IMG/VR virus record: IMGVR_UViG_3300031954_000001
Coordinates: 1 to 64,000 of that record
Source: a virus
DNA: 64,000 nt
Strand: one strand, 5' to 3'
Of the stretch, positions 443 through 6,089 are shown piece by piece. The notes under the pieces are model-generated. The model saw only the letters and a program-made list of their open reading frames with translations. It ran no database searches and had not been told where the DNA came from. Both the position numbers and the translations under genes were made by a program. Positions within the stretch are counted from its first letter, which is position 1. Each line of letters opens with the position of its first letter.

Positions 443-904
443 CCGGCTTGCGACCAGGTAACAGCGCGCCATGTCTGACCTGGGAAAACGTATCCGGAGC
501 AACCCTCCGATTACGTCAACAACAGTTGACAGCCTAGGTCAGGTGACATAGCTGCAGGTCAGGTAGCTAATTCGGTCAGTGTTCGAGGATCAGTGATCAG
601 GTGATGAGGTGATCAGGTCTGTGTTCTAATTCTGTTGAGTGCTGATGTGTTAGTGCAGGTCAGAGGCATGATTCGTACACCATACGAAATTGTTGCGGAA
701 GACCCTGTTTTCCGTTAACACCTGTTAAGGATTAAAGCCCAGGTCAGGACCCTAATCACTACGATTTCGATAGAATGCTCGTAAACCATGGTTGACAAAA
801 GCGTTTTTTGTGACGCAGCCCACATTTTTGGTCATAGTGCCAGGTCACAGCTCTGCTAGTCCTCGAATACCTACTCGAAATCAGCTCTTTTCCGAGGGCC
901 TGAC

Positions 905-933
905 TTGCATACCGAGAAATACCGCTATAGGCT
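905..933 (+). promoter_or_regulatory. Principal-sigma-type promoter upstream of ncRNA candidate
   Basis: TTGCAT (905-910), 17-bp spacer, TAGGCT (928-933). Confidence 0.6.
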
Positions 934-939
934 TCGGGC

Positions 940-1372
940 AATGCCCTTCGCAGGGCAGGCCAGCCGTCAAGTTTAGGGACGGTACAAGCCGGCGGTAAGT
1001 GATTCCCCGCGCGATGCGGGAAGGCTGAAAATCCGGCTGTGCGCTTGCGCACGGTCGGGCAGGATACGCCCCGGGAGGCGAGAGCTACCGGGGACGCTTG
1101 CGAGCTACTCCGCCGGCCACATATGGAACCTAGCTAGTCATGCGTGAGCGCGAGAGCGTTAGCGGGTGAGCGATTGCTCCCAATAGTGATTGGCGAACAG
1201 TAGACCTACTCAATGGGCCAGCACAGTGCGATGCTGGCCTGCGCGATGTTTGCGCAGGCCAGCGGTACCCCAAGCCTAGGTTAGAGGATAGGCCGGCGCA
1301 TGTGTCGCTAGGTTCCCATATGTGGCGAGCATTCAAGCCGGATACGAACCCCAATCGGGTGACATGCCGGCA
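940..1372 (+). ncRNA. Large structured non-coding RNA candidate (~430 nt)
   Basis: Long-range stems 988-995/1110-1117, 1117-1134/1307-1325 and 1139-1144/1297-1302 enclose more than 10 hairpins, several with GNRA loops; no credible ORF; promoter directly upstream. Confidence 0.7.
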
Positions 1373-1959
1373 TAGGACGTCTGACCTGCGCAAACGAGCG
1401 ATGGTTCATAGATTCGCGACTGGCCGGCGCCGACCCACAAGCGCGCAAACGCGCGTGATCGGCGCGGTTGACTTTTCGCAGGTCAGACATGGTGAGTCTG
1501 CCACGGTTCACCCGCGTAGCGGGTGAGCCAACCGATACGCGTTTGTCTGGCAACCATGCGCGTATCACGTCCCTACCTGCGAGTTTCCGTGTTGCGCGTG
1601 TCGTCACGCGCGTGAGCGTCGCTCCACACTCGCAGGCAACGATCGGCGAGCATCACTGCAGGTTAAAGCGATGTCTGACATCCTGGCCTGCAGTGACCAG
1701 CATCGCAAACGCTTCACCCGCTTTACCCGCCGGCCACCCGCGCGCACAGCATAGCGTCTGACCTGCGCAAACACACTTCACTGTCACTGTTTGCGAGTGA
1801 TTACGCGCCGCACCGCGCGCGGGTAGCCGGCTAGATCGTGGCAATGGACGCGTGACCTGCGCATATGCGCAGTATGGACGCGGGCAACCGATTCAGCATC
1901 GGCCACGATCACGCGGAATCACCCGCGCGCCACAATGGCGCTCTGACCTGGGAGTTTGC

Positions 1960-2046
1960 ATGAATTACAAGATCGTTTCGCGTCGTAACGGCTGGATCAC
2001 GGTCATGTGGTCCGATGGACGCGTCACCCGCCACAGCATCGGTTGA
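1960..2046 (+). CDS. Small hypothetical protein (28 aa)
   Basis: GGGAG RBS before ATG; MNYKIVSRRNGWITVMWSDG. Confidence 0.45.
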   Translation: MNYKIVSRRNGWITVMWSDGRVTRHSIG

Positions 2047-2108
2047 TTGACGGGACGGCCACGCGCACCGTGCGCGTGGCCGGCCGTGAGTCAATCCTGG
2101 CTCTGACC
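2024..2108 (+). ncRNA. Repeated multi-stem RNA motif, copy 1
   Basis: tcacccgc..cggttga..cgggacggccacg-loop-cgtggccggccgtgag..ctctgacc; homologous to 2568-2649 and 5988-6070. Confidence 0.6.
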
Positions 2109-2141
2109 TGCGCAAACATGCGCCTACGGAAAGGTTTTACC

Positions 2142-5965: not shown

Positions 5966-5987
5966 AAACCTCCCACCGCTGGGAGCA

Positions 5988-6070
5988 TCACCCGCTAGCC
6001 CGGTTGACGGGATGGCCACGGTGCCCGCGCACCGTGGCCGGCCGTGAGCACGCGCTAGCTTGCTCTGACC
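5988..6070 (+). ncRNA. Repeated multi-stem RNA motif, copy 3
   Basis: Central stem ggccacggtgc/gcaccgtggcc is a compensatory variant of ggccacgcgc/gcgcgtggcc. Confidence 0.6.
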
Positions 6071-6089
6071 GAACGATCTGAGGAGATCA

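Follow-up and report, generated by a model that had tools for sequence, protein, structure and literature searches.

A tightly folded, ORF-free region near the left end of a soil phage genome and its possible role as a structured leader of early transcription

The region described here, positions 940–1372, lies close to the left end of a 108,794-bp virus record from soil in IMG/VR. The window that was analysed comprises the first 64 kb of that record, position 1 of the window being position 1 of the contig, and CheckV estimates the completeness of the record at about 52%. The nearest cultured relatives are phages of Actinoplanes and Streptomyces (32–38% identity), which points to an actinobacterium as the probable host. 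A 582-aa protein encoded nearby led to four related records of uncultured phages (33–50% identity), and the left ends of these distant phages have no nucleotide similarity with the window. A second neighbouring protein, of 413 aa, has a 60%-identical relative (P0003) encoded on a 14.8-kb ENA contig. All of the genes neighbouring the region are on the + strand. Neither tRNA genes nor a tmRNA were found in the 64-kb window, so a tRNA or tmRNA reading of the region was rejected. An array of at least nine tRNA genes (G000 107608–108780; L128 1609–2781) is situated at the record's right-hand end, the contig breaking off within it or directly behind it.

The first 460 nt of the window contain a 21-bp near-palindrome (20–62), five GTTAGC-n-GCTAAC inverted repeats (75–200) and about 13 tandem copies of a 17-nt G-rich repeat (CCGGGAGGGTGGCTCAG and variants, at 200–450). 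In an MFE scan of the whole record on a fixed grid, with which domain 2 (see below) is out of register and which is used here for description only, the first 210 nt rank as the most strongly structured segment. The region itself is bordered by an A+T-richer stretch (GC 0.46–0.53, against about 0.68). In the related record G001/L002, which is rated 100% complete, the left end runs from xTCCCxGG..GTG..A6 through repeat arrays and an A+T-richer stretch to TTGACA-17-TAGCGT and an ORF-free leader of about 520 nt. Positions 1–30 of L002 and positions 1–30 of the window, from ends that MAFFT does not align, begin alike to the eye (xTCCCxGG...GTG...AAAAAA), which suggests, by eye only, that position 1 of the window is a true genome end and that this terminus is common to L002. 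If position 1 is the true genome end, then the first-pass annotation is reasonably worded where it takes the region to be the first transcript from that end.

That annotation also placed a TTGCAT-17-TAGGCT promoter ahead of the region. A promoter-like site of this sequence, of the host sigma-A type, is indeed present (Table 1), though with agreement at only 6 of the 12 positions of the E. coli consensus it is passed over by a strict scan. Each strand of the 64 kb has only three sites of the looser pattern TTGNNN-N16-18-TANNNT, the present one being the sole + strand site in 1–2300. It lies 7 nt upstream of the first hairpin, and transcription from it is predicted to start at about 940. No ORF of at least 45 aa with the coding signature of this genome (GC3 >0.8) occurs before about 2.6 kb, in agreement with the earlier remark that some 430 nt here carry no credible ORF; a protein-coding reading of 940–1372 was rejected, the coding signature being absent. 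The short ORF with which the non-coding stretch ends (..VMWSDGRVT..) resembles by eye the first small ORF of the relative G002 (..VEWSDGSTG..; L126 about 2146–1996, - strand view), WSDG being common to both, and it may represent a conserved early micro-protein.

Table 1. Predicted features between the promoter-like site and the first plausible coding sequence, in window positions.
Feature	Position	Strand	Elements	Basis or remark
Sigma-A-type (host) promoter-like site, TTGCAT-17-TAGGCT	905–933	+	TTGCAT 905–910; TAGGCT 928–933	sequence, pattern scan
Two 5'-proximal hairpins	942–983	+	942–947/952–957; 963–968/978–983	pair probabilities 0.89–0.99
Domain 1, closed, three arms	988–1117	+		fold
Domain 1 closing stem, 8 bp	988–995/1110–1117	+		MFE pairs 991–995/1110–1114
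Domain 1 hairpin	1006–1010/1016–1020	+		fold
Domain 1 11-bp hairpin, 2 G-U	1033–1043/1048–1058	+		pair probability 0.99
Domain 1 arm	1059–1101	+	stem 1069–1074/1088–1093; capped by GAGA hairpin 1077–1086, loop 1080–1083	
Domain 2 stalk, 19 bp, one bulge, no G-U	1116–1134/1307–1326	+		pair probability 0.85–1.0
Domain 2 second stem, 7 bp	1139–1145/1296–1302	+		fold
Domain 2, five arms		+	1147–1160 (GAGA loop); 1168–1179; 1186–1224; 1226–1268 (15-bp hairpin); 1274–1293	fold
Terminal hairpin of the 940–1372 interval	1337–1371	+	GCCGG/CCGGC with inner ACCC/GGGU	no U-run after; not terminator-like
ORF-free structured continuation	1373–1959	+	closed domains 1379–1488, 1505–1529, 1534–1566, 1576–1636, 1653–1696, 1729–1831, 1834–1910	
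First plausible CDS, 28 codons	1960–2046	+	GGGAG 8 nt upstream	weak evidence; ends non-coding leader

The predicted fold of 940–1372 is far more stable than that of dinucleotide-shuffled controls. Its MFE is -213.8 kcal/mol, against -177.9±6.2 kcal/mol in the shuffles (z -5.83 on the + strand), and none of 100 shuffles folds as well; the reverse strand gives z -5.25. The ensemble is also well defined, the ensemble diversity (mean base-pair distance) of 988–1326 being 24.4 as against 92.1±28.1 in shuffles, with a minimum of 35.4 among 60 of them. Every stem named in the first-pass annotation is present both in the sequence and in the fold. The stretch at the 5' end, 940–987, has z -2.0, and the first of its two hairpins starts 2–3 nt past the predicted transcription start.

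Domain 1 folds better on the + strand (z -4.8) than on the - strand (z -2.1). Its description as a domain closed by gccggcgg/ccgccggc with three hairpins inside is borne out in all its parts, though the closing stem depends on context: alternatives compete with it once upstream sequence is included, whereas the inner arms have pair probabilities of 0.96–1.0. In domain 2 a 4x4 internal loop separates the long stalk, whose inverted repeat is listed as I16, from the second stem. The near-perfect long stem and the catgcg/cgcatg helix reported for this domain are both there, the former as 19 bp with one bulge, but the count of about seven hairpins is not, since the fold has five arms. Without the stalk the interior gives z -3.0 on the + strand and -3.5 on the - strand. 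The helices of domain 2 are identical in folds of 940–1372, 880–1500 and 934–2141. Long-range stems are nested around hairpins and are stable in these three contexts, an arrangement that is usual in RNA domains and atypical of protein-binding palindromes.

A short motif is distributed about the region. Its core, TCTGACCTG(C/G)G, is found 11 times within the first 2.1 kb, a stretch in which, by our estimate from base composition, the 8-mer CTGACCTG would be expected about 0.1 times. The - strand copies of the CTGACCTG motif are at 555, 656, 740 and 841, and the + strand copies at 1382, 1759, 1853, 1944 and 2104, so that apart from exceptions at 476 (+) and 1479 (-) the orientation of the motif flips around 900–1380. 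A longer form, (A/C)AT..TCTGACCTG(C/G)G(C)AAAC, has its copies within window positions 474–2120. The downstream copies sit after hairpins, 17–47 nt before the starts of early genes. Further copies are at 2643 and 6064, and two distant relatives have the core near their left ends (L004 50, 182; L002 383, 572, 749). Its role may be that of an operator or other protein-binding site, of a promoter element or of a signal in RNA. In domain 2, the 15-bp hairpin has a 3' arm (1246–1258) that is complementary to three copies of the motif over 11–13 nt. A T7-like RNA polymerase or a sigma factor was considered as its reader; neither such a polymerase nor sigma region 2 was found in the record, though the search with PF00940 gave no match in control genomes either and so carries no weight.

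The surroundings just described, together with the palindromic nature of most of the stems, which are perfect palindromes, raise the possibility that the structure acts at the level of DNA, as an origin, priming, regulatory or packaging region at the genome end that works through palindromes or single-stranded hairpins and is possibly RNA-primed. About 1 kb separates the region from the apparent physical genome end. Tandem repeats and the A+T-richer stretch are close by, and the region is flanked by the CTGACCTG arrays of changing orientation, whose core is present near the left end in L002 and L004 as well. For its replication the phage encodes a primase-helicase-PolA fusion, and RNA-based origins have a precedent among actinophages (PMC7157519). 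Moreover, domain 2 (1116–1326) is equally stable on the + strand (z -7.1), on the - strand (z -7.2) and as single-stranded DNA (z -6.8 with DNA parameters). The G-U pairs that had been taken to favour the + strand do not in fact do so. When helices were seeded from the pairs common to the MFE folds of both strands, with both transition mismatches allowed, a strand-neutral count of wobbles gave 3 G-U on the + strand against 3 A-C, the latter corresponding to G-U when read on the - strand. The parallel argument from GNRA loops fares better: the two C-GAGA-G tetraloops exist as such on the + strand only.

A role as a DNA element is nevertheless judged unlikely. Binding sites in duplex DNA need no nested multibranch architecture, GNRA loops are a feature of RNA, and both domain 1 and the sequence that follows the region (1373–2141: z -7.3 on the + strand, -5.0 on the - strand) fold clearly better on the + strand. 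Direct iterons are absent inside 940–1372, and ParB_N was not found in the 108-kb record (about 52% complete), unlike the situation at the parABS-linked ori of mycobacteriophages. Of the covariance models built on the + strand, that of domain 1 (R2) misses the - strand, whereas that of domain 2 (R1) matches it at 53 bits. Overall, the evidence for the + strand, which comprises the asymmetry in z-score of domain 1 and of the downstream sequence, the GAGA loops, the position of the promoter-like site, the orientation of the genes and the behaviour of R2, is real but modest.

The structured stretch does not end naturally at 1372. ORF-free, hairpin-rich sequence continues from there up to the short ORF at 1960, and in the first closed domain of this continuation (1379–1488) a 12-bp stem is formed from two inverted copies of the TCTGACCTGCG motif. 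No terminator-like site is found at 1372, the nearest candidate being 1450–1466 plus a T-run. The proposal of a discrete species of about 430 nt gains no support from this, equally structured non-coding sequence extending without a terminator to about 1959. Structure of this kind is also concentrated near the left end, where five of the eight perfect hairpins of at least 9 bp in the 108-kb record fall within the first 6.1 kb. Among the early genes there is a hairpin element of about 85 nt in three copies, at 2024–2108, 2568–2649 and 5988–6070 (2018–2114, 2562–2655 and 5982–6076 with the conserved linkers TCACCCGC..GGTTGACGGGA..GGCCGGCCGTGAG..TCTSACC). Of its 27 pairs, five have changed on both sides and still pair, so that hairpins of an RNA type appear to be maintained in the early transcription unit, and the element is likely to be a terminator or processing module acting at the RNA level between early genes. 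In the relative G002, the spaces between early genes contain repeated tRNA-like T-arm/acceptor mini-helices, GGTTCRAnTCC...GTGCCACG (L003 1335–1365 and 1505–1530; L126 near 2415–2385), which are not called as tRNAs by ARAGORN and which may be tRNA-like processing signals.

No family of Rfam 15 matches anywhere in the window at the gathering threshold, and over 1–2600 at E<=10 there are only chance-level matches, the best of them being a match to the 20-nt HIV-1 SL4 model at 20.2 bits (threshold 31) that coincides with the GAGA hairpin at 1145–1164. GOLLD, ROOL, OLE, raiA, 6S, RNase P, tmRNA, YrlA and group I/II introns are among the families without a match at that threshold. The earlier statement that hallmarks of tmRNA, RNase P and group I/II introns are missing here agrees with this, and the search of Rfam advised with it has returned no family. 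The likeness to GOLLD and ROOL that was proposed is one of size and 'ornateness' only, and the covariance models of those RNAs do not match.

Homologues of the region were sought widely. None was found among INPHARED phages (distant blastn and megablast), in PLSDB plasmids by blastn, or in IMG/VR by exact-pattern scans with two pieces of the element of 21–24 nt. A motif scan gave 113 loci, mostly attributable to chance, with no similarity past the motif. Searches of viral, metagenome and genome collections anchored on the 582-aa, 413-aa and P0003 proteins led to distant phages only (33–50% amino acid identity). In the four related records, R1 and R2 match nothing, the window itself being the only hit. 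The equivalent leader in L002 (about 520 nt) is unstructured (z -0.95, with a centroid far from the MFE structure) and that in L004 is moderately structured (z -3.6). The lack of matches to R1 and R2 and the unstructured leader of L002 indicate that the element is lineage-specific, and the latter also that structure at this place is not a conserved requirement of the phage group. At present, the element is best described as a candidate singleton from an actinobacterial soil phage, and not as a demonstrated new class of RNA.

Near-identical sequence is present in 23 soil DNA runs, and there are no RNA runs among the holders listed. One run labelled 'metatranscriptomic' but flagged as 'probably DNA' yielded a single 254-nt contig over 956–1196 that has 3 differences (about 99% identity), and this contig was used for variants only, not for expression. 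In this run the sequence is about 99% identical over 956–1196 and about 87% identical over 469–531, and diverges immediately outside both; by its sequence it is a mosaic relative. Both of the listed changes convert stem positions that are not Watson-Crick into C-G pairs: T1038C replaces U-G by C-G inside the 11-bp hairpin of domain 1, and A1021G replaces C·A by C-G at the base of hairpin 1006–1020. The U-G at 1038 is a tolerated wobble on the + strand only. That two of three changes improve pairing, when only about 8% of transitions in this stretch could do so, is suggestive (p about 0.02, by our rough estimate).

These variants bear on the view that the structure serves no specific function, and consists of hairpins accumulated in a spacer, such as decayed terminators or the palindromic remnants of mobile elements, or else belongs to a leftward transcript. 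Such a view would accord with the failure of relatives to conserve the structure and with the strand-neutral wobble count, and the 19-bp inverted repeat placed around 172 nt does resemble a miniature inverted-repeat element. We nonetheless consider it quite improbable. A miniature inverted-repeat element was rejected as an identification, the repeat being present in a single copy in the 108-kb record and its flanks (ccgccg / gagcat) not being duplicated as a target would be. By our estimate from base composition, only about 0.05 interrupted 19-bp inverted repeats within 600 nt are expected per 64 kb; the z-scores and the definition of the ensemble are extreme; both listed substitutions improve pairing; and the only leftward promoter-like site in 1–2300 is at 112.

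It is also conceivable that the region specifies a stable large non-coding RNA of a new kind, standing alone and acting in trans as a protein scaffold or sponge or in anti-defence. The product would be either 940–1372 approximately or else domain 2, alone or with domain 1, excised at the stalk as an RNA of about 210 nt, a lineage-restricted species that might, for example, sequester a host protein after entry. The closed and very well-defined fold with its long-range stems would suit such a molecule, as would the region's own promoter-like site, its lack of an Rfam match and the retention of 956–1196 in the variant contig while neighbouring sequence diverges. In addition, the next module opens at 1380 with the recurrent TCTGACCTGCG motif that elsewhere follows hairpins 17–47 nt before early genes, and if this motif is a promoter then 1372 would be a natural boundary of the unit. 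Against this, structure of the same kind continues for 600 nt beyond 1372, it is not conserved in the four related records, the leader of L002 being unstructured, and the element is smaller than GOLLD or ROOL and at the opposite end of the record from the tRNA array. A trans-acting RNA is less likely than a leader acting in cis, because no terminator interrupts the structure ahead of the first gene and relatives do not conserve it, and we think both this role and the excision of domain 2 as a stable trans-acting species doubtful.

Taken together, the observations make a structured RNA read rightward the most likely interpretation, at somewhat better than even odds. Within it, the reading we prefer, with a probability of roughly 0.4, is that 940–1372 forms the first two modules of a folded, modular 5' leader of about 1 kb (940 to about 1959) on an early transcript. 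This reading draws on a fold far beyond that of shuffled sequences and a well-defined ensemble; on the better folding of domain 1 and of 1373–2141 on the + strand, with the two C-GAGA-G tetraloops; on the fact that the left end has a single sigma-A-like site, placed just before the first hairpin, with neighbouring genes all in the + orientation; on the continuation of structure without a terminator to the first ORF; on the concentration of strong hairpins in the first 6.1 kb of the record and the preserved pairs of the three-copy hairpin; and on the two variant changes that yield C-G in stems. Several observations count against it: domain 2 is strand-symmetric and stable also as single-stranded DNA, wobbles are balanced at 3 versus 3, the collections searched hold no homologue, the leader of L002 is unstructured, and the promoter-like site is a weak match to consensus.

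We infer that host RNA polymerase would transcribe the leader rightward from 905–933, ahead of the first genes. The 5'-terminal hairpins and the closed domains could then shield the early transcript both from decay that depends on the 5' end and from endonucleolytic decay. The stalk of domain 2 offers, in the predicted fold, the approximately two turns of continuous duplex (19 bp plus 7 bp) that would flank an RNA excised by an enzyme of the RNase III type, specific for double strands, as do the R-sites of T7 and the stems of rRNA precursors, and from the length of this duplex only it is tempting to suggest that it is a processing site. Cutting there would part the leader from the message and may release a compact multi-hairpin RNA of about 170–210 nt, while the leader as a whole may set the extent of read-through past the chain of hairpins into the early genes. 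If the region is transcribed, it would combine one of the tightest folds in the genome with a place in the first RNA made on entry of the phage, and folded early leaders of this sort may control the survival of mRNA, read-through into early genes or the takeover of the host.

Of the known systems that the region calls to mind, cluster A mycobacteriophages have a non-coding 'ori' of about 400–500 bp that is located centrally, beside parABS, in temperate plasmid-prophages (PMC7157519). With this ori and with ColE1 RNA II the present region would share an ORF-free stretch of about 400–500 nt (whose transcription is predicted here), flanking repeats of a short motif and a PolA-type polymerase, in an actinophage in the case of the ori; it differs from the ori in that ParB_N was not found in this record, which is about 52% complete, and in having no sequence similarity to plasmids or phages, and a role in replication could be proposed only by analogy. 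GOLLD (RF01998) and ROOL (RF03087) belong to the large ornate RNAs that phages and prophages carry (PMC12286853). Like them, the candidate described here is a large, multi-domain, ORF-free structured RNA borne by a phage, but its unit is of 210–430 nt rather than about 500–800 nt and is away from tRNA genes, next to which GOLLD and ROOL are often placed, no covariance model matches it, and no homologues were found, whereas the structure of GOLLD and ROOL is conserved across many homologues.

Closer to the proposed role are RNAs that act from the beginning of an early transcript. The put RNA of phage HK022 consists of about 70 nt in two stem-loops. As in put and in the leaders of rrn antitermination, a folded RNA here would follow immediately on an early promoter and precede a chain of hairpins that the polymerase has to read through; inspected by eye only, the sequence downstream of the promoter-like site has no boxA-like element, unlike those systems, and antitermination is suggested by analogy only. 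The element lies outside every Rfam family, and yet a folded non-coding leader of early phage transcription is, as a kind, known from T7 and lambda. At the left genome end of T7, behind terminal repeats and early promoters of the host type, lies an early leader of about 0.4 kb with an RNase III site, R0.3; the N-leader and sib of lambda likewise contain RNase III sites. The leader proposed here differs from that of T7 in its length of about 1 kb and in its several closed multibranch domains, and from both T7 and lambda in having no sequence relation to either, in an actinobacterial host and in cleavage that is so far only predicted. What it would have in common with them is a non-coding leader at the left end, before the first gene, and within it a long irregular duplex that is predicted to suit RNase III.
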